A stretch of 64,000 bases of DNA from Escherichia coli (GTDB lineage: Bacteria; Pseudomonadota; Gammaproteobacteria; Enterobacterales; Enterobacteriaceae): assembly GCF_013315695.1 (NCBI RefSeq), contig NZ_CP054353.1. One strand, 5' to 3'. Each line of letters begins with the position of its first letter. Within the stretch, counting starts at the first letter, position 1. A program made the position numbers and the translations under genes. The notes beneath the pieces were generated by a model, which saw only the letters and a list, made by a program, of their open reading frames with translations, was not told where the DNA came from and ran no database searches. Of the stretch, positions 13,745-58,430 are shown piece by piece.

Positions 13745-13889
13745 ATACAGCGAACGCCATTGGTTTAGTTGGATATTTACTGTGCCGGACAAAAACGGTT
13801 TGCGGGGAAATCTTAGTTAAGTAGAATAACTGCGGGTGCTTGAGGCTATCTGTCTCAGGCATGAACACCAAAAGGCAGATAGAGAAAAG

Positions 13890-13953
13890 CCCCAGTTAAC
13901 ATTACGCGTCCTGCAAGACGCTTAACATTAATCTGAGGCCATATCTATGCGAC
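13890..13953 (-). ncRNA. Putative Sok-like antisense RNA of the hok locus (extent approximate)
   Basis: Reverse-strand promoter TTGACC, 18 nt, TAATCT (-35 at 13984-13989, -10 at 13960-13965) pointing across the mok-like start; 3' end not defined. Confidence 0.3.
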
Positions 13954-14006
13954 ACATAGAGATTAGCCTCTTACGGACCGAAAGGTCAAGGAGAAGCAGG
14001 CTATGA
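13947..14006 (+). CDS. mok-like leader ORF (19 codons) translationally coupled to hok
   Basis: ATG CGA CAC ... CTA TGA; its stop overlaps the hok ATG (cTATGAag). Confidence 0.35.
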   Translation: MRHIEISLLRTERSRRSRL

Positions 14007-14158
14007 AGCAGCAAAAGGCGATGTTAATCGCCCTGATCGTCATCTGTTTAACCGTCATAGTGACGGCACTGGTAACGAGGAAAGACCTCTGCGAGGTACG
14101 AATCCGAACCGGCCAGACGGAGGTCGCTGTCTTCACAGCTTACGAACCTGAGGAGTAA
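14003..14158 (+). CDS. hokD: Hok/Gef-family type I toxin, 51 aa (HokD/RelF-like)
   Basis: MKQQKAMLIALIVICLTVIVTALVTRKDLCEVRIRTGQTEVAVFTAYEPEE; RBS AAGGAG. Confidence 0.9.
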   Translation: MKQQKAMLIALIVICLTVIVTALVTRKDLCEVRIRTGQTEVAVFTAYEPEE

Positions 14159-16031: not shown

Positions 16032-16406
16032 ATGCTCATAGATTTGGTTTTACCTTACCCGCCGACGGTGAACACTTACTGGCGACGCCGTGGCAGCACA
16101 TATTTTATCTCGGAGGAGGGAAAGCGTTATCGCCGGGCTGTGGCGCTTATTGTTCGCCAGCAGCGGCTGAAATTAAGCCTGTCCGGAAGGCTGGCGATAA
16201 AGGTGATTGCAGAGCCACCGGATAAGCGTCGTCGCGACCTGGACAATATCCTGAAAGCACCGCTGGATGCGCTGACGCATGCGGGAGTGTTAATGGACGA
16301 TGAGCAGTTTGATGAAATCAATATCGTTCGTGGTCAGCCAGTATCTGGTGGACGTCTGGGGGTGAAGATTTACCCCATAATGCATGAAGAGCAGGTCAAA
16401 AAATGA
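16032..16406 (+). CDS. rusA: Holliday-junction resolvase RusA
   Basis: MLIDLVLPYPPTVNTYWRRRG...DKRRRDLDNILKAPLDALTHAGVLMDDEQ. Confidence 0.85.
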   Translation: MLIDLVLPYPPTVNTYWRRRGSTYFISEEGKRYRRAVALIVRQQRLKLSLSGRLAIKVIAEPPDKRRRDLDNILKAPLDALTHAGVLMDDEQFDEINIVRGQPVSGGRLGVKIYPIMHEEQVKK

Positions 16407-17224
16407 AACTGGAAGATTTACCGAAATACTACTCCCCAAAATCCCCTGGCCTGACCGATGCATCGGCCTCAACGTCAAAAGATGCGCTGAGTATCACTGA
16501 TGTGATGGCCGCGCAGGGCATGACACAGAATCGGGCTGAGATGGGTTTTTCTGCGTTCCTGGGGAAAATGGGCATCAGTATGAATGACAGGGTGCGGGCA
16601 ACAGAATTACTGGCAGATTATGCACTCAGTCGGTGCGATCGTGTGGCGGCGTTGAGAAAACTTCCGGCAGAAATAAAACCGGTAGTGATGCGCATTATGG
16701 CTTCGTACGCTTTTGAGGATTATGCCCGCAGCGCAGCGAGTAAAAAGCAGTGCCCTTGTTGCTATGGGGAAAAATTTATTGAAAGCATAGTTTTTACAAA
16801 CAAGGTCCAGTATCCGGATGGTAAGCCGCCGGTATGGGCAAAGTGTACGAAAGGTGTGTATCCGTCTTACTGGGAAGAATGGAAAAAAGTCAGGGAGGTG
16901 GTAAAAGTTGCCTGTCCGGAGTGTGGCGGAAAGGGTGAGGTTTCCACCGCCTGTAAGGATTGCCGTGGGCGTGGTGTCGCCATTCACCGTGAAGAGTCGG
17001 TAAAACGTGGTATGCCTGTTATCAGAGACTGCCAGCGTTGTGGTGGTCGTGGCTATGAAAGACTACCATCAACGGAGGCATTTAATGCTATATGCGAGGT
17101 GACAAACCAGATAACACGCGCGTCATGGGAAAAAACAGTTAAGAAATTCTATGATGCGCTGGTGACCCGGTTTGATATTGAAGAAGCATGGGCTGAGCGG
17201 CAGTTAAAAAAGGTAACTAGGTAA
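16403..17224 (+). CDS. Late-gene antiterminator Q (QuuQ-like, zinc-finger type)
   Basis: MKLEDLPKYYSPKSPGLTD...; multiple CxxC pairs (CPCCYG, CPECGG, CKDCRG, CQRCGG); overlaps rusA stop. Confidence 0.75.
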   Translation: MKLEDLPKYYSPKSPGLTDASASTSKDALSITDVMAAQGMTQNRAEMGFSAFLGKMGISMNDRVRATELLADYALSRCDRVAALRKLPAEIKPVVMRIMASYAFEDYARSAASKKQCPCCYGEKFIESIVFTNKVQYPDGKPPVWAKCTKGVYPSYWEEWKKVREVVKVACPECGGKGEVSTACKDCRGRGVAIHREESVKRGMPVIRDCQRCGGRGYERLPSTEAFNAICEVTNQITRASWEKTVKKFYDALVTRFDIEEAWAERQLKKVTR

Positions 17225-17367: not shown

Positions 17368-17443
17368 GGCCCTTTAGCTCAGTGGTGAGAGCGAGCGACT
17401 CATAATCGCCAGGTCGCTGGTTCAAATCCAGCAAGGGCCACCA
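17368..17443 (+). tRNA. ileZ: Prophage tRNA with CAU anticodon, Ile2 (lysidine) type, ileZ-like
   Basis: GGCCCTTTAGCTCAGTGGTGAGAGCGAGCGACTCATAATCGCCAGGTCGCTGGTTCAAATCCAGCAAGGGCCACCA; close to host ileX in sequence. Confidence 0.85.
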
Positions 17444-17543: not shown

Positions 17544-17617
17544 GCGTTGTTAGCTCAGCCGGACAGAGCAATTGCCTTCTAAGCAATCGGTCACTGGTTC
17601 GAATCCAGTACAGCGCG
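17544..17617 (+). tRNA. Prophage tRNA-Arg (UCU), argO/argN-like
   Basis: Acceptor GCGTTGT/ACAGCGC, D-stem GCTC/GAGC, anticodon stem ATTGC/GCAAT with loop CTTCTAA, T-arm ACTGGTTCGAATCCAGT; no encoded CCA. Confidence 0.8.
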
Positions 17618-17730
17618 CTATATTCATTCTTCCAGATTCCTTCCGGCAGAGCCTTATACTGAAATATACCTGGCTCAGGATATTGTTGAAAATATTATAT
17701 GTTTGTCAAAAATAAAAGTTCTGTTAAGTA

Positions 17731-18084: not shown

Positions 18085-18531
18085 ATACATATCTGGATTA
18101 TCACTTGTTACGGTAAAAAGTGATTGCTTACTGTTTTTGTGAGTGGCATTGCAGCAGCCGGATAATGTCAGTGCTGGCTGACGGTGTGCTGGTGGCGGGT
18201 GTGGTGGTTGTTGCTTTCCCGTTGCTGAAAAAGAAAACGCCAGACTGTTAGCCGGGTATCAGTTAGCGGGAGAAATTTTTAAATACTTCACAATTCAGGC
18301 GGTTGACTGTTGTCTGGTTTGCGGGGAGTTTGTTAAAAGAAACTGGCATGGTGAATCCCCCTGTGCGGAGGGGCAATCAGCGAGTAGGTATATGGGATAA
18401 TCGCGGATTCAGGTGCTGGTACTGAATTCACCGGGAGGCACCCGGCACCATGCAATGGCACATAGCGCCACTCTCCAGCCCCTCTCCGGAGGGGCTGTTT
18501 ATATTGATTTTGTCAGATGTGAGTAAACTCC

Positions 18532-18867
18532 TTATGGACTTTGTTGTTTTAGTCCATAAGGACATATTTGCAGAGTGCAACGGTTATTAAAGCATTCATT
18601 CAATACGTTATCTGTATTTGTAGGACATTCCTGGCTGTTTTTGATTAAATTCCAGAATGTTTTATTGAATGGTGCTACGTTGTAAATGGTTACAGGTAGC
18701 ACTTTGTTATTGAGCATGATACCTGTGTGAGTCAGTGTAAATATACTTTCAGGAGGTAAGAAAGCATCCGATTGATACCAGATTATTAATTTTATTTTAC
18801 TCCATATGACTGAAAAAGATATTCCGCATGATGGCTGGATAACTGTATCAATCACAATCCACTTCAT
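18532..18867 (-). CDS. Hypothetical Cys-containing protein, 111 aa, reverse-strand moron
   Basis: Strong RBS AAGGAAA 5 nt before ATG; GC about 35 percent; opposite strand to the late operon. Confidence 0.5.
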
Positions 18868-19127
18868 TTAGTTTCCTTGTTTATGTCTTGCTGGTGATGT
18901 TCTGAAAAGTATAAATGATATTTTTGAATGTAAACCATAGAGCAGAATTATTTTTCTGATGTTGTTTATTGTTTATTTAAATGCAGGGTGGTTTATATCT
19001 CGTCTTGTAGTTTATCCATGCATATCTGCTTGATGATGAGGTTTTTATTTAAGGTATGGTTTTGTGTTTTTTCTGTATTACATGTCAGGTATTTTAAAGA
19101 ATTATTTTTCAGATGGTGGAAAGAACC

Positions 19128-21089
19128 ATGGCATTTAAACACTATGATGTTGTCAGGGCGGCATCGCCGTCAGACCTTGCGAAACGACTGACACAAAAAC
19201 TGAAGGAGGGGTGGCAGCCATTTGGCAGTCCGGTGGCCATCACGCCTTATACCCTGATGCAGGCCATTGCGGCGGAAGGTGATGTCACCACACCTGTGGT
19301 GGTGAAGCCGTCGGATGGAGAAGGCGCAGTTATCAGCAACACCAGCAACCCGGAGTATTACTTTGTTGTTGCCCTGGCCGGGCAGTCAAACGGTATGGCG
19401 TATGGTGAAGGGCTTCCGCTGCCGGAGACATATGACCGTCCGGACCCGCGTATTAAACAGCTGGCGCGTCGCAGCACTGTCACGCCGGGTGGTGCGTCCT
19501 GTAACTACAATGACATTATTCCTGCGGACCACTGCCTGCATGATGTTCAGGATTTGAGTAAGTTTTCACACCCGAAAGCCAGCGCAGCTCAGTATGGATG
19601 CGTGGGGCAGGGATTACATATCGCGAAGAAATTGTTGCCGTTTATTCCGGCGAATGCCGGTATTCTTCTGGTTCCGTGCTGCCGTGGTGGTTCTGCATTT
19701 TTGGCGGGCGATGAAGGTACCTTCAGCGAATCCACCGGCGCAAGCGAGACCTCGGCACGCTGGGGTGTAGATAAGCCACTGTACAAGGACCTGCTTACCC
19801 GTACTCAGGCCGCACTGAAGGCCAACCCTAAAAATATTCTGCTTGCAGTGGTCTGGATGCAGGGCGAGTTTGATTTGAAACAGGGTGCATACGCCACTCA
19901 GCCGGGGCTGTTTGATTCCATGGTGGAAAAATATCGTTCTGACCTGTCGGAATTCGGAGGTCAGTGTCTCGGGGGCTCTCCGTCATCAGTTCCCTGGATT
20001 TGTGGCGACACGACCTACTACTGGAAGCAGACTTATTCTTCGCAATACGATGCGGTGTATGGTGCATATAAGACGAAATCCGCAAAAAAAATCTTCTTTG
20101 TGCCGTTTATGACGGATGAAAACGGGCGAAATGTGGGTACCAACGAGCCGTCAGAAGATCCGGATGTTGCGGATATTGGGTATTACGGAGCCGGTGGTCG
20201 AACGGACGCCAAAACCTGGACGACGGCTGACCGTAAAACGCATTTTGGATCATGGGCACGTCGTGGGATTATTTCCGACCGTCTGGCAACGGCGATTCTT
20301 GTGCATGCCGGGAGAACCGCTGAATTCATTACCGGAAAACAGCCTGATACGGTGAAGCCCACCGGACCTTCCGGTGAAGGTACGGAGAGAGAGCCGGAAG
20401 GTCCGGTCAGTAACCGAACCCTGATGAGTCTGCTGGCGTCCGGCGAAGACCTGGCATCACAGGGCTGGCGCTATTATCACAAACCGGCGAGCGGAGACAA
20501 TGTTAACAAAAACATTGCTGAAGCGGTGGTCAGTGATGCGGGGGCTACGGGAGGTAAGGCCCTGCAACTGAATAAACCGGAAAACCACATCTGGTTTCTG
20601 GAGCATGATGCAGCCGGGCAGGGGGCAGAGTTGCTGAAGAAAGGAGGACGTGTGAGCGTACGGTTTAAGTTGCCGGGTTCACTGGTGCCGAATCAGTTTG
20701 CCCTGGGCATTTACTGGCAGTTGTCGTCCCTGCCGGAGGGAGTGACGCTGGCAGAGGAAGGCAACGACATGCTGATGTCCTTCTTTCTGCAGACGGATGC
20801 GACGAACCTGAACGCGATGCACCACAAGAAGCCGAATGCGAAGCTGGAAACGTTCGGGGTCTTTGATAACGGATGGCACACACTGGCTTTTGAGTTTGCC
20901 GGAAACAACAGCATTCAGGTGACGCCGGTACTGGATGAGAAACGGGGGACGCCGTTCACACTGGTGAAATCTCCGGCATCAGGGGCGGCGGACAAACTGC
21001 AACTGACAGGCATATCAAAGGCGGCGACATATACGCTGCTGATTGACAGTGTGAAGGTGGAAGTGAACAACGCGGATGCCGCGGCATGA
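19128..21089 (+). CDS. nanS: Prophage NanS-p-type sialate O-acetylesterase (N-terminal DUF1737-like plus SGNH-type esterase)
   Basis: MAFKHYDVVRAASPSDLAKRLTQKLKEGWQPFGSPVAITPYTLMQ... then ...FVVALAGQSNGMAYGEG...; 653 aa. Confidence 0.7.
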   Translation: MAFKHYDVVRAASPSDLAKRLTQKLKEGWQPFGSPVAITPYTLMQAIAAEGDVTTPVVVKPSDGEGAVISNTSNPEYYFVVALAGQSNGMAYGEGLPLPETYDRPDPRIKQLARRSTVTPGGASCNYNDIIPADHCLHDVQDLSKFSHPKASAAQYGCVGQGLHIAKKLLPFIPANAGILLVPCCRGGSAFLAGDEGTFSESTGASETSARWGVDKPLYKDLLTRTQAALKANPKNILLAVVWMQGEFDLKQGAYATQPGLFDSMVEKYRSDLSEFGGQCLGGSPSSVPWICGDTTYYWKQTYSSQYDAVYGAYKTKSAKKIFFVPFMTDENGRNVGTNEPSEDPDVADIGYYGAGGRTDAKTWTTADRKTHFGSWARRGIISDRLATAILVHAGRTAEFITGKQPDTVKPTGPSGEGTEREPEGPVSNRTLMSLLASGEDLASQGWRYYHKPASGDNVNKNIAEAVVSDAGATGGKALQLNKPENHIWFLEHDAAGQGAELLKKGGRVSVRFKLPGSLVPNQFALGIYWQLSSLPEGVTLAEEGNDMLMSFFLQTDATNLNAMHHKKPNAKLETFGVFDNGWHTLAFEFAGNNSIQVTPVLDEKRGTPFTLVKSPASGAADKLQLTGISKAATYTLLIDSVKVEVNNADAAA

Positions 21090-21240: not shown

Positions 21241-21423
21241 ATGACATTTCTGAACCAGTTAATGCTGTACTTCTGTACGGCAGTCTGTGTTATGTATCTT
21301 CTTTCGGGTGGGTACAGGGCAGTGCGCGATTTCTGGCGCAGGCAGATTGATAAAAGGGCCGCTGAGAGAATCAGCGCCAGTCAGTCAGCCGGAAGCAAAC
21401 CCGAAGATCCGCTCATTCCGTAG
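21241..21423 (+). CDS. Small single-TM protein, 60 aa
   Basis: MTFLNQLMLYFCTAVCVMYLLSGGYRAVRDFWRR...; weak RBS. Confidence 0.3.
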   Translation: MTFLNQLMLYFCTAVCVMYLLSGGYRAVRDFWRRQIDKRAAERISASQSAGSKPEDPLIP

Positions 21424-21460: not shown

Positions 21461-21706
21461 ATGTCAGAAATCACATCCCTGGTCACTGCTGAGGCAGTGA
21501 AGGAAGTCCTGCGCTCTGAAGAAGTCCTGAGCGCACTGAAACAGAAACTCCGCCAGAACCTTGAGTCGCGTCTTGATGCAGAAGTGGATGCCATTCTGGA
21601 TGAGCTGCTGGGCGTACCAGCGGTTCCGGAGCCGGAAGGTATCGCGGGTGACGGGAGTGCTTCAGATGGCGGTGAACCCACACCTGACAGCGACATGATG
21701 ATGTAA
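21461..21706 (+). CDS. Small acidic protein, 81 aa
   Basis: [50 protein letters not shown]...; inside a longer TTG-started ORF. Confidence 0.35.
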
Positions 21707-21782: not shown

Positions 21783-21998
21783 ATGTACCAGATGGAAAAA
21801 ATCACAACAGGTGTGTCATACACCACGTCAGCGGTGGGAACGGGCTACTGGTTCCTGCAGTTGCTGGACAGGGTTTCCCCGTCTCAGTGGGCGGCAATAG
21901 GCGTGCTGGGGAGTCTGCTGTTTGGGCTGCTGACATATCTGACTAACCTGTATTTCAAAATCAGAGAGGACCGGCGTAAGGCGGCGCGGGGAGAGTAA
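21783..21998 (+). CDS. S: Class II holin, S21-like pinholin, dual-start motif
   Basis: [71 protein letters not shown]; Met1 and Met4 starts. Confidence 0.85.
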
Positions 21999-22002
21999 AG
22001 TG

Positions 22003-22893
22003 ATGAATAAAAAATATGAACTGGTTGTTAAGGGGATAAATAATTACGGGGATAAGGTTACTGTTACTGTGAAGCCGGAAGGTGACGGGCAAGCGTCGCT
22101 GTTGTTGCCAGATGTGGCGATTAGTCTTGACCGTACTGAAGGTGCCACGCTGGAGTTTTACGAAGCTGAGGCGAAAAAGCAGGCGAAGCAGTTTTTCATG
22201 GATGTTGCTGCCGGGTTATGTGAATGGAACGAACCGTTGCCGGAAAAGCGCCCCGTAATTTTAGAGGCGCAGGATGTGTTGATAACCTACAAAGGAAAGC
22301 TACCGGGAAGAATTACTTGTTCTCTGAAGATGCCGCCGTCAACACTGCGGTCAGAAAAAGATGATGTTGAATCACGTATTGAAAAACTGGAGAGCTACGT
22401 CGTTGAGCTGAATAAGAAATGGTCGATATTGGTGCCTTCTGGCGATGAAAAGCAGTTTGCTGCGTTTGACGATTATTGTCGGAAAGTGATGAGCAGAAAT
22501 CTCGCAGAGTGTTTCAGTATTCATAATGATAATTTCAGTGAGCTGGAATGGGAGTGTAACCGGCCATCCTTTGTTGTATCCGGTGATGCTGGGAAAATAA
22601 CCATCTCAGAAAATGGGAAAGTAACACCTCCATCGCACCAGCACAGTGAGGAGCTCATTGAATTTGCCATTGATTACCTGAAGAACAATAAAAAGCAGGG
22701 GCTGATGAAGCGCGTTGGCCGTTGCATGGGATATCTTCAGGTAGCCGCTGAGATTGAAGCGCTGGCCAGTGGTGCTGATAAGGATGCAATTGTGCGGGAG
22801 GCTCTTCTTCGTGATTTTAATACTCCACCCTTTAAAAAAGTGCCGGCTTACTGGCTTCATCCGGGGCTGACTTATCTTAAAGTGCGTATTTAG
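22003..22893 (+). CDS. Unknown cytoplasmic protein, 297 aa, embedded between holin and endolysin
   Basis: ATG 5 nt after the holin stop with GGGGAGAG RBS inside the holin 3' end; no TM segments; no family recognised. Confidence 0.7.
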   Translation: MNKKYELVVKGINNYGDKVTVTVKPEGDGQASLLLPDVAISLDRTEGATLEFYEAEAKKQAKQFFMDVAAGLCEWNEPLPEKRPVILEAQDVLITYKGKLPGRITCSLKMPPSTLRSEKDDVESRIEKLESYVVELNKKWSILVPSGDEKQFAAFDDYCRKVMSRNLAECFSIHNDNFSELEWECNRPSFVVSGDAGKITISENGKVTPPSHQHSEELIEFAIDYLKNNKKQGLMKRVGRCMGYLQVAAEIEALASGADKDAIVREALLRDFNTPPFKKVPAYWLHPGLTYLKVRI

Positions 22894-22929
22894 TGGGCCA
22901 GGGACAGCGGCTGAATATTTAATATATCC

Positions 22930-23463
22930 ATGAACACCAAAATCAAATACGGCCTGTCGGCTGCCGTTCTGGCGCTGATTGCCGCTGGTGCGCCTGCGCC
23001 TGACATTCTCGACCAGTTTCTGGATGAAAAGGAAGGCAACCACACCACAGCATACCGTGATGGTGCAGGTATCTGGACCATCTGCCGTGGTGCCATCATG
23101 GTGGATGGCAAACCTGTCGTTCCGGGCATGAAGTTGTCGAAGGAAAAATGCGACCAGGTTAACGCCATTGAGCGTGATAAAGCGCTGGCGTGGGTGGAGA
23201 AAAACATCAGAGTGCCGCTGACCGAACCCCAGAAAGCGGGGATCGCGTCATTCTGTCCGTACAACATTGGTCCCGGTAAGTGTTTCCCGTCGACGTTTTA
23301 TAAACGAATTAATGCAGGTGATCGCAGGGGAGCGTGTGAGGCGATTCGCTGGTGGATTAAGGACGGTGGCAGAGACTGCCGTATCCGCTCAAACAACTGT
23401 TATGGTCAGGTATCCCGTCGTGACCAGGAGAGCGCGCTGGCGTGCTGGGGAATCGACAGATAA
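22930..23463 (+). CDS. R: SAR (signal-anchor-release) endolysin, R21-like lysozyme
   Basis: MNTKIKYGLSAAVLALIAAGAPAPDILDQFLDEKEGNHTTAYRDGAGIWTICRG... Confidence 0.85.
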   Translation: MNTKIKYGLSAAVLALIAAGAPAPDILDQFLDEKEGNHTTAYRDGAGIWTICRGAIMVDGKPVVPGMKLSKEKCDQVNAIERDKALAWVEKNIRVPLTEPQKAGIASFCPYNIGPGKCFPSTFYKRINAGDRRGACEAIRWWIKDGGRDCRIRSNNCYGQVSRRDQESALACWGIDR

Positions 23464-23959: not shown

Positions 23960-24418
23960 ATGCTTTCCGCGTTTATCGTTATTCTGCTGGTGGCCTGTGG
24001 TGCGCTGTGGATGGCAACAGACCATTACCGTGATAACGCGATTACCTACAAAGCGCAGCGCGATAACAAAGCCAGTGAACTGAAGCTGGCGAACGCAACC
24101 ATTACTGATATGCAGGTGCGCCAGCGCGATGTTGCTGCGCTCGATGCAAAATACTCGAGGGAATTAGCCGATGCGAGAGCTGAAAATGAAACTCTTCGCG
24201 CTGACGTTGCCGCTGGTCGTAAGCGCCTGCGGATCAACGCCACCTGTCCAGGCTCCGTGCGTGAAGCCCCCACCACCTCCGGCGTGGATAATGCAACCGG
24301 CCCCCAACTGGCAGACACCGTTACACGGGATTATTTCACCCTCAGAGAGCGGCTGATGACGATGCACAAGCAACTGGAAGGGGCACAGGACTATATCCGC
24401 ACTCAGTGCCTGAAATAA
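23960..24418 (+). CDS. Rz: i-spanin Rz
   Basis: [65 protein letters not shown]..., closely lambda-Rz-like. Confidence 0.85.
24171..24356 (+). CDS. Rz1: o-spanin Rz1, lipoprotein embedded in Rz in the +1 frame
   Basis: [51 protein letters not shown]; lipobox VSAC, Pro-rich. Confidence 0.8.
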
Positions 24419-24728
24419 GTTTTGTTGATGCGCCGTATCGTCGCTATATTCCCTCATTAACAGAGACCGCAGCCCGACAGGGAGACTCCTCTGCGCGAGT
24501 GTGCGGGGATAATTAAAAACGATGCTCACCGGGTTTTTACCGCGTTAATGATTCGCGGGTTTATCCCGGTGCGATGGTGGAAGAAACAGGAAGCTGTATT
24601 ACAGAAAGTGCTACTACTGTATCCCGATGCGATGTATGTAATGTGAGTCAGATAATGGCACAGGATGTGGTGATGTGGCAGTCTGGAACACAGGATATAT
24701 TGTCAGAATAAGACCCGTAGGAATAAAA

Positions 24729-25055
24729 ATGAAAAGACGCCTTTTACTACTTTTTCTGTTATCTGTCCTGGCAGTGGGATGCTCGCAGCAAAAAGCTGAT
24801 GAGCCCCGGCAATTAGTGACGGTGTATCCACGATATCCGGAATATGCTGCAGCAAATTATATCAAGGGGCTGGTTGAGGTTAAGTTCGATATTGGTGCTG
24901 ATGGGACTGTGACACGGATCGTTTTTCTCCGCTCAGAGCCTCATAATTTGTTTCGTGATGAAGTGGTGAAGGCCATGGCGAAATGGCGATTTGAAAAGAA
25001 TCGCCCCTGTCAGGGAGTGAAGAGACAATTTATCTTTACGCCGTCACGTCCCTGA
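24729..25055 (+). CDS. Lipoprotein with TonB C-terminal-like domain, 108 aa
   Basis: MKRRLLLLFLLSVLAVGCSQ (lipobox) then VTVYPRYPEYAAANYIKGLVEVKFDIGADGTVTRIVFLRSEPHNLFRDEVVKAMAKWRFE; RBS AGGA. Confidence 0.65.
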   Translation: MKRRLLLLFLLSVLAVGCSQQKADEPRQLVTVYPRYPEYAAANYIKGLVEVKFDIGADGTVTRIVFLRSEPHNLFRDEVVKAMAKWRFEKNRPCQGVKRQFIFTPSRP

Positions 25056-57801: not shown

Positions 57802-58430
57802 TATGTATTCCCTTGTGATTATAATCTTCATGAATATATCAATAAGTGCTGTTATCCAAAAAAAGCACATTTGGATACTATTCTATGAAGTTCATTTTAT
57901 TTTAAAGATTACATGTAACAAATGTATTTAAAAGATTTCAAAATGTTTCTAATCTATTTAATATAATTCATAGTTATGAATTCTGAATATAAATATTCAC
58001 GAATATTATGGATATATATCAATATGTTATGAGTTGATCGAAAAGATAGGGAGTATCAATGATTGTTGCGCTAAACGGCTGGTGTGATCTCGCGCACATT
58101 AATGAAGGCATAAAAAAAAGCCGGCATCATGCCGGCCCAAAAAAATATAAACAAGACGATAAAAGGCTAATAACGGAGGCATGATGACACAGAAAAATAA
58201 AAAGGTATAATTGTAATCAGTACCAATATATTGATTGAATGAATTAATAAAGCCGAAATCAAAGATAAATAACATCGTTCAAATCGATTTTTCCTGTATT
58301 CACCGCCGTTGCGCAAAATTTATCTATTTGTTCAAAAAATGATTGAGTCTTGACTGGCTCATCCAATGTGGAAAAATGTGACTTTTATCACATAATAGTT
58401 CTAAGTCTGAATTTTCCGGGTTATCTCAAA

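Follow-up and report, generated by a model that had tools for sequence, protein, structure and literature searches.

A long, multi-module form of the YdfR/DUF1327 family encoded between holin and endolysin in an Escherichia coli prophage

We analysed a stretch of 64,000 nucleotides of Escherichia coli DNA (contig NZ_CP054353.1, assembly GCF_013315695.1), called the window below, and within it an open reading frame (ORF) on the plus strand at 22003-22893, which lies in a prophage lysis cassette between the genes of an S21-type class II holin and a signal-anchor-release (SAR) endolysin. This slot gene, as judged from its sequence, codes for a member of the YdfR/DUF1327 prophage family (PHROG 1085) in its long, multi-module form. 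An identical protein, the family and the position are already present in public databases, and the family is known and among the commonest prophage genes of E. coli. The original prediction, made from the letters of the window, had found no family in which to place the protein and had regarded the gene as the best candidate for something undescribed; both views give way to a Pfam match (DUF1327, E 4.5e-40), a PHROG match (E 1.5e-189), the label “YdfR family protein” and an identical UniProt entry, which make it a known and common E. coli prophage family without established function. The arrangement had also been considered unusual for a lysis cassette, but the Qin prophage of K-12 has the same layout (essQ-ydfR-rrrQ). 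With regard to function, we tentatively suggest that the slot protein could be an accessory late protein that modulates host RNA decay through RNase E.

Results

Assignment to the YdfR family

Pfam DUF1327 (PF07041) aligns with residues 1-100 of the slot protein over model positions 1-88 of 93 (i-Evalue 4.5e-40, 136 bits), and PHROG 1085, whose function is not annotated, aligns with the entire protein (residues 1-296 against 296/296 profile positions, E 1.5e-189). The Prokaryotic Genome Annotation Pipeline (PGAP) labels it “YdfR family protein”, and the AFDB/UniProt entry A0A376Q4W6, named only “Phage protein”, is 100% identical. The slot protein does not differ from what is listed as PHROG 1085, A0A376Q4W6 and the RefSeq “YdfR family protein” of 296 aa, and these entries carry no functional annotation. 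The original prediction had named a confident match to a known family with established function as the finding that would speak against it; the family match is indeed confident, but the family is one without an established function.

E. coli M16807 has DNA that is 100% identical to the slot gene. Of 5426 complete E. coli genomes, 495 contain at least 80% of the gene and 2702 some matching part of it. The nearest protein cluster at 90% identity comprises 962 member sequences. The family as a whole is narrow: when 1.84 billion proteins are clustered at 50%, it has 74 representatives. Three distant homologs (P0142, P0150 and P0180) match PHROG 1085 as well. In at least two RefSeq genomes PGAP annotates only codons 1-112, as a pseudogene (“YdfR family protein; incomplete; missing C-terminus”). 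The mis-annotated copies are L001 12304-12639, whose protein is identical to that of the window, and L098 3001-3336, whose DNA is 100% identical. Because the annotation stops at codon 112, about 590 nt of an intact ORF, and with them the conserved C-terminal domain described below, are missing from the annotation of both genomes.

The prototype of the family is K-12 YdfR (b1555, P76160) of the cryptic prophage Qin. Its gene lies between essQ, encoding a class II holin, and the lysozyme gene rrrQ; like the slot gene it starts after a 4-nt gap behind the holin gene and is located directly 5′ of the lysozyme gene. The two proteins share the same Pfam domain and an N-terminal core (BLASTP 46% identity over residues 1-74, E 7e-21), and BLASTP found no match beyond residue 74 of the window protein. 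K-12 YdfR, however, has only 103 residues, with an unrelated short tail after residue 74, and its stop codon overlaps the start of rrrQ, whereas the window protein carries 222 extra residues (a linker, a helical hairpin and a conserved C domain) and ends 36 nt before the endolysin gene. Among the proteins compared here, experimental data exist for K-12 YdfR only (binding to the N-terminal half of RNase E and co-purification of RNA; PMC13232886), and in the literature searched a single paper mentions DUF1327 and PMC13232886 is the one functional study.

The ORF and its junction with the holin gene

The ORF is intact and placed between holin and SAR endolysin as originally described, and the ribosome-binding site lies, as was also proposed, inside the 3′ end of the holin gene. 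The arrangement was thus given correctly, but the lengths were each one unit too large: the protein has 296 residues plus a stop codon rather than 297, the gap between the holin stop codon and the slot-gene ATG is 4 nt rather than 5, and that between the slot-gene stop codon and the endolysin ATG 36 nt rather than 37. Translation starts at the ATG at 22003, with an in-frame GTG at 22000. The Shine-Dalgarno sequence GGAGAG (21990-21995) is located 7 nt 5′ of this ATG and forms the last two sense codons of the holin gene, which ends ...GGA GAG TAA. It serves whatever gene comes next, which in other cassettes is the endolysin gene or a gene of the N or C type.

In the A/T-rich 36-nt spacer (22894-22929) no obvious Shine-Dalgarno sequence for the endolysin was found. 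In cassettes with an empty slot (e.g. L044) the endolysin ATG stands in place of the YdfR ATG and is served by the GGAGAG within the holin gene. Insertion of the slot gene moves the endolysin gene away from this ribosome-binding site, and therefore endolysin translation could be lowered or delayed. A 145-aa antisense ORF (22606-23043, minus strand), which overlaps the 3′ end of the slot gene and the start of the endolysin gene, has no homolog among the partner ORFs of related loci and was rejected as spurious.

The GC content is 43-48% within the slot gene and 52-56% in its flanks. In pairwise Nei-Gojobori comparisons with diverged homologs dN/dS is 0.29-0.53 for the complete gene, with the smallest values (0.16-0.37) in the C domain; across all comparisons it ranges from 0.16 to 0.56 and is below 1 nearly everywhere. 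Since identical or near-identical ORFs occur in hundreds of genomes and dN/dS lies in this range, the slot ORF has every appearance of a real gene under purifying selection, far beyond a chance ORF. The expectation of a soluble product without transmembrane segments was borne out. The highest 19-residue Kyte-Doolittle mean is 0.75, compared to 1.70 for the holin and 1.74 for the SAR segment of the endolysin, so no hydrophobic segment is present, and there is no signal peptide. The slot protein is soluble and cytoplasmic.

Domain architecture

An AlphaFold2 model of the full protein, built on a 43-sequence alignment, was used to delimit the modules listed in Table 1. The N core, which corresponds to the DUF1327/YdfR domain, is modelled with strands at residues 6-14, 18-27 and 38-43 and a long helix at 50-73. 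The linker that follows (residues 75-119) is predicted to be disordered; in the alignment it is conserved among E. coli homologs. The middle part (residues 120-187) is the site of indels and recombination breakpoints, with indels of 28-33 aa in variants of 268, 329 and 330 aa, and stand-alone C-module ORFs align from residue 120 onwards.

The C domain modelled alone is a three-strand meander with helices after it, at a predicted local distance difference test (pLDDT) value of 91.1 and a predicted template modelling (pTM) score of 0.83. Within it H214, G239, R240, L245, Q246, A248, A249, P276, K278, W284, P287, G288, Y291 and L292 are invariant, while E250 is near-invariant. Homologs at 27-34% identity retain the layout of N core, coiled coil and C domain, and the C domain is their most conserved part. 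Both the N core and the C domain open with three strands and a helix, but an origin of the C domain by duplication and divergence of the DUF1327 core was rejected (hhalign probability 0.2%).

Structure prediction with a subsequent structure search had been proposed as a check of the original prediction. The former gave the confident model of the C domain, but the latter yielded no fold match in the PDB, where nothing below E 0.5 was obtained with Foldseek for the full model. Against AFDB50, Foldseek found only the same unannotated family in Escherichia, Shigella and Salmonella, together with short DUF1327-only proteins from Yersinia, Hafnia, Providencia and Rosenbergiella. Nothing significant was found among PDB sequences (best E 0.71 with phmmer and 0.19 in a profile search), and NCBIfam gave no match. 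The search of PADLOC-DB 2.0 with PADLOC gave no meaningful match, the best being PbeC (E 0.049, 9.9 bits) over the coiled-coil stretch. A C-domain profile run against 5.8 billion proteins retrieved only hypothetical proteins of E. coli, Shigella and Salmonella and no informative domain fusions. All eight PHROG matches of the slot protein are of “unknown function” and none belongs to the lysis category, whereas its neighbours match holin, endolysin and spanin in the same search. Taken over NCBIfam, Pfam and the PDB sequence and fold searches, no enzyme, toxin or binding-domain signature was detected.

Occupancy of the slot in related cassettes

A synteny survey in cassettes with S21-type holin and SAR endolysin had likewise been proposed. 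We carried it out on 80 loci from viral contigs that share 97-100% holin identity with the window, and the slot could be bounded in 68 of them. As the loci were chosen by holin identity, the invariance of the holin is partly a result of this selection. The slot is occupied by a family member in about 87% of the 68 cassettes and empty in 13% (9/68, with the endolysin ATG 4 nt after the holin stop codon and a holin that is 99-100% identical). N-only genes account for 46% of the cassettes, N plus part of the middle for 6%, N plus middle with a convergent phrog_2572 ORF for 3%, N plus C (268 aa) with a convergent phrog_1853 ORF for 6%, the 330-aa form for 1%, the 296-aa form of the window for 9%, and the C module only (185-222 aa, or with a short first ORF) for 12%; the remaining 4% are disrupted or other. 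The recognised contents of the slot are thus modules of the YdfR family and small convergent ORFs only. The junction itself is constant (...GGAGAG, a stop codon, 3-4 nt, and the ATG of the next gene), and the endolysin alleles (90-99% identity) are not sorted by slot class.

The slot gene is not always kept together with its holin gene: 9 of 68 cassettes lack any slot gene, and N-only and C-only forms stand behind the same holin. Because cassettes with an essentially identical holin exist without the slot gene, it is dispensable for the lysis cassette. The distant homologs point in the same direction. P0142 is encoded between Q, accompanied by a HicAB pair, and the holin gene, P0180 two genes upstream of a holin gene, and P0150 adjoins a DUF4406 gene on a 3.1-kb contig with no lysis gene. 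Empty slots and homologs outside the S-R junction argue for an accessory gene rather than a wired-in component or core lysis gene. Within E. coli, on the other hand, the gene is very tightly linked to cassettes of S21-type holin and SAR endolysin.

Variants and mosaicism

Members of the family occur as an N-only form (103-116 aa), N plus part of the middle (176-183 aa), N plus a longer middle (211 aa), N plus C with a shorter middle (268 and 287 aa), the window form (296 aa), a form with a 33-aa hairpin insertion (325-333 aa), and the C module alone (185-222 aa), which begins at a position equivalent to residue 120. Synonymous divergence differs between the modules: relative to locus L010, the window gene has a dS of 0.58 for its N module and of 0.00 for both the middle and the C module, and relative to L012 it is 0.07 (N), 0.00 (middle) and 0.24 (C). 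These differences indicate a recombinationally mosaic gene, with breakpoints at the module borders.

A permuted order is present in L015/L016 (3001-3897), where the holin gene is followed by a C module of 213 aa and then by a separate gene for a 75-aa DUF1327 core; such an order is common, the 213-aa C-module protein being seen on 203 contigs. That the two modules are fused in some genomes and adjacent separate genes in others argues for a functional link between N and C. The fused form with N core, hairpin and C domain is probably ancestral, since distant homologs (27-34% identity, from three genomic contexts, with related matches annotated from Salmonella) keep the fused layout; the 103-aa K-12 YdfR and the C-only ORFs would then probably be deletion derivatives.

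In many relatives YdfR-family genes are followed, and sometimes overlapped at their 3′ end, by small convergent ORFs of 86-111 aa. Those of phrog_1853 (L003 3145-3459, L006 2378-2713, L007 4807-5124 and L012 3420-3734, all on the minus strand) are 45-77% identical to each other and recur in three different phage contexts; others are found in L004 (3084-3344, minus strand), L015 (3902-4189, minus strand), L038 and L030, and phrog_2572 occurs as well. Pfam, PADLOC and NCBIfam did not recognise the partner ORFs of related loci. The window was searched for phrog_1853 and phrog_2572, and no convergent partner gene was found.

Late operon and surrounding prophage

Upstream of the cassette, an Rfam STnc100 leader RNA (Table 1) ends in a terminator-like hairpin at 18476-18497, as located by a terminator scan. 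From this context, the Q-dependent transcript with the slot gene presumably begins at this leader. No sigma-70-like site was found by promoter scan on the plus strand between the leader and the slot ORF. Because of the leader, the lack of such a site in this interval and the Shine-Dalgarno sequence within the holin gene, we infer that the slot gene is transcribed only within the Q-dependent late operon, in agreement with the late expression originally assumed. A promoter-like match at 18137-18166 was not used as the late promoter; it is located upstream of the leader and its score is low (9/12).

Table 1. Coordinates of the slot gene, its modules and neighbouring features in the window (aa, residues of the slot protein; pI, isoelectric point; AF2, AlphaFold2)
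Feature	Position	Strand	Evidence or remark
Long-form YdfR-family coding sequence	22003-22893	+	ORF list; 296 aa + stop; intact
N core, DUF1327/YdfR domain, aa 1-74	22003-22224	+	Pfam, AF2; pLDDT 65-90; acidic, pI 4.9
Basic linker, aa 75-119 (PEKRPVILEAQDVLITYKGKLPGRITCSLKMPP...)	22225-22359	+	predicted disordered, pLDDT 25-39; pI 9.4
Helical hairpin and variable middle, aa 120-187	22360-22563	+	helices 122-146 and 149-170; pLDDT ~60; pI 4.6
Conserved C domain, aa 188-296	22564-22890	+	three-strand meander and helices; pLDDT 50-93; basic, pI 9.1
Shine-Dalgarno sequence GGAGAG	21990-21995	+	last two sense codons of holin gene; direct sequence reading
S21-type class II holin (pinholin), MYQMEK dual-start motif	21783-21998	+	PHROG 9876 and 20; PGAP “class II holin family protein”
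SAR endolysin (R21/rrrQ-like lysozyme), hydrophobic N-terminus	22930-23463	+	PHROG 7 endolysin, E 4.3e-62
Rz-like i-spanin	23960-24418	+	PHROG 13, E 1.6e-73; 100% identity to PGAP “lysis protein”
Embedded Rz1 ORF	24171-24356	+	ORF list
Q gene	16403-17224		upstream of leader
Late-operon leader RNA, STnc100	18317-18506	+	Rfam, 132 bits vs gathering score 47
SASA-family carbohydrate esterase, NanS-p-like, 658 aa	19113-21089	+	PHROG 143; upstream of holin gene as in Stx phages
DUF1378	21241-21423		between esterase and holin genes
DUF826	21461-21706		between esterase and holin genes

The transcript of the leader may correspond to StxS, a regulatory small RNA (sRNA) that is described for Stx phages (PMC7547250). 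Between the late terminator and the esterase gene, antisense to the late operon, lies a gene for an IraM-like anti-adapter (18535-18870, minus strand; 100% identical to a PGAP-annotated IraM) in an island of 31-39% GC, a situation typical of morons. In the annotation of a near-identical relative, no stx or other cargo gene is listed from Q (16403-17224) to the esterase gene. Directly 3′ of Q, as in Stx and lambdoid prophages, are two phage-borne tRNA genes on the plus strand: one at 17368-17443 with anticodon CAT (tRNA-Ile according to PGAP, tRNA-Met according to ARAGORN) and a tRNA-Arg (TCT) at 17544-17618.

The prophage of the window is Qin-like also in its DicF sRNA (6262-6313, minus strand), its sok/hokD toxin-antitoxin locus (13834-14155, plus strand) and rem. 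The host sRNA gene rseX is situated at 58113-58203 (minus strand), near the right end of the window. Directly after Rz/Rz1 follows a gene for a 108-aa “TonB family protein” (24729-25055, plus strand); a longer ORF from the GTG at 24675 reads ...LLLLFLLSVLAVGCSQQ, which resembles a lipoprotein signal. The same gene is also located 3′ of the lysis cassette in L001, L010 and L098, and it is a candidate lysogenic-conversion or exclusion gene.

Discussion

About half of the complete E. coli genomes, Stx phages included, carry a member of the YdfR family within a lysis cassette that has been studied intensively, and its function is not established; two Stx-phage papers on lysis cassettes and on the region flanking stx do not describe the slot gene. 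New in the present analysis are the dissection into domains, the evidence for a functional link between N and C, the probable ancestry of the long form, the survey of the slot and the recognition that intact copies are mis-annotated as pseudogenes. The 103-aa K-12 YdfR is thereby linked to a larger, probably ancestral protein with a conserved C domain, and work on the K-12 protein may miss most of the function.

What could such a protein do late in the lytic cycle? A lead is provided by a study of K-12 YdfR (PMC13232886, RNA Biology 2026), in which residues 1-72 were recovered in a two-hybrid screen with RNase G as bait. This fragment was positive against RNase G and both RNase E constructs, with a stronger signal for RNase E, and Rne1-598 and DNase-resistant nucleic acid (RNA) co-purified with Strep-YdfR (PMC13232886). 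The region of homology to the window protein (residues 1-74) coincides with this interaction region. Moreover, in a long form whose middle and C modules are identical to those of the window (dS = 0), the N core is 81% identical to K-12 YdfR. We therefore propose, as a possibility rather than a probability, that the slot protein is an accessory late protein that would modulate host RNA decay via RNase E. The acidic N core would bind RNase E at its catalytic N-terminal half, as is reported for the homologous residues of K-12 YdfR. The helical hairpin and the basic, conserved C domain might supply oligomerisation and a second surface, for RNA or another protein, and the protein might serve as an adaptor or inhibitor that alters how RNase E acts on transcripts of the phage or the host during expression of the long late mRNA.

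Several observations weigh against this proposal. The RNase E interaction was reported for the 103-aa K-12 protein only, and the cloned full-length K-12 YdfR fusion gave a two-hybrid signal with the Rne 1-597 construct only (PMC13232886). A contaminant as the carrier of the co-purified RNA was not excluded by the authors, and overproduction of K-12 YdfR changed few transcripts and caused no growth defect (PMC13232886). The N allele of the window is only 46-53% identical to K-12 YdfR. The C domain has no detectable relative, so that its role is a guess, and the occupancy of about 87% and the tight linkage to S21-type holin cassettes fit a lysis-related role too. The same study also cites an envelope-integrity screen for ydfR (PMC13232886), but ydfR is not named in the main text of the screen itself (PMC3879167). 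An envelope phenotype of a ydfR deletion cassette could possibly arise from a polar effect on the downstream lysozyme gene.

The original prediction had suggested a regulator of lysis timing, a late defence or anti-defence factor, or a moron. The soluble protein might, alternatively, be a cytoplasmic regulator of lysis timing that binds the cytoplasmic tail of the pinholin or affects export or release of the SAR endolysin. The position of the ATG 4 nt after the holin stop codon and the Shine-Dalgarno sequence within the holin gene tie its synthesis to holin translation, the S-R slot is filled by a family member in most cassettes and was not a general cargo site in that sample, and two of the three distant homologs are located within about 1 kb upstream of a holin gene. 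Against it stand cassettes that carry a 99-100% identical holin and an empty slot. Moreover, N-only, C-only and fused forms stand behind the same holin and unsorted endolysin alleles, which is hard to square with one conserved partner in the cassette, although the loci were selected by holin identity. The lack of similarity to any lysis-category PHROG, the lack of a membrane segment, the P0150 homolog beside a DUF4406 gene on a contig with no lysis gene, and the overproduction of K-12 YdfR without a growth defect (PMC13232886) also make a lysis-timing regulator an unlikely explanation.

The diversity of the slot could instead reflect an arms race. In that case the gene would act in defence, anti-defence or superinfection exclusion, in some relatives paired with a small convergent gene. 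The polymorphism in presence and absence, the at least eight architectures with breakpoints at module borders, and the GC content below that of the flanks would be in line with such a conflict gene, and the recurring convergent ORFs (phrog_1853 in L003, L006, L007 and L012, phrog_2572 and others) suggest two-gene cassettes. In L013, a related prophage with a 333-aa YdfR-family protein, a Tad2-like gene of the anti-Thoeris family (5092-5613) directly follows the spanin gene, and therefore anti-defence cargo can adjoin such cassettes. We nonetheless doubt this explanation, as neither the protein nor the partner ORFs match PADLOC, no promoter-like site for expression in the lysogen was found, the end of the lytic cycle is late for anti-defence, the window copy has no convergent partner, and dN/dS is below 1 nearly everywhere.

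It is very improbable that the protein is a cargo that is set free by lysis and works extracellularly in favour of the lysogens that survive, in the manner of Stx and the NanS-p esterase: it shares the late-operon segment with the NanS-p-like esterase (19113-21089) and, being soluble and devoid of a signal peptide, could leave the cell only by lysis, but it has no enzyme, toxin or binding-domain signature, its K-12 homolog binds an intracellular target (PMC13232886), and positive evidence is lacking. The rest of the probability falls to roles that none of these readings covers.

Should modulation of RNase E hold true for the long form, lambdoid or Stx phages would have their first described modulator of RNA decay. 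A broader version of the hypothesis, which we consider quite unlikely as it stands, is that the S-R junction of S21-type cassettes houses modular late effectors. Here, the DUF1327 core would dock on RNase E's catalytic domain, the C domain (H214, R240, Q246, K278 and E250) would bring a new activity or RNA binding, lambdoid and Stx prophages would reprogramme RNA decay before lysis, and K-12 YdfR would be a truncated remnant.

Comparison with known systems

P1 LydB and T4 RIII are soluble lysis regulators encoded next to holins. The lysis-timing explanation would make the slot protein a soluble counterpart of these, and like them it is soluble, of small to medium size, and made together with a holin whose gene adjoins its own. 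It differs in that its gene is absent from otherwise identical cassettes and in that no similarity to the lysis-category PHROGs was found.

For the preferred reading, in which the slot protein would act on RNase E, the relevant precedents are other phage proteins. T7 gp0.7 and T4 Srd act on the host RNA-decay enzyme and alter transcript stability in infection. The likeness of the slot protein to these and to the RNase E modulator Dip (gp37) of phiKZ (PMC4980113) is functional only, and no sequence or fold similarity to Dip, gp0.7 or Srd is seen, with no significant match in the PDB. The acidic N core may recall the acidic binding module of Dip. Dip, however, targets the C-terminal scaffold of RNase E, whereas K-12 YdfR is reported on the catalytic half, and all three modulators come from virulent phages and are encoded outside lysis cassettes, in contrast to the slot gene of a prophage lysis cassette.

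RapZ, the adaptor that delivers the sRNA GlmZ to RNase E's catalytic domain, has no homology to the slot protein; for YdfR no RNA ligand is known and overproduction has little effect on the transcriptome. K-12 YdfR nevertheless shares an interaction class with RapZ, since it makes contact only with constructs carrying the Rne catalytic domain and since RNA is recovered together with it (PMC13232886). A RapZ-like adaptor model would fit the acidic N core and the basic C domain of the window protein.

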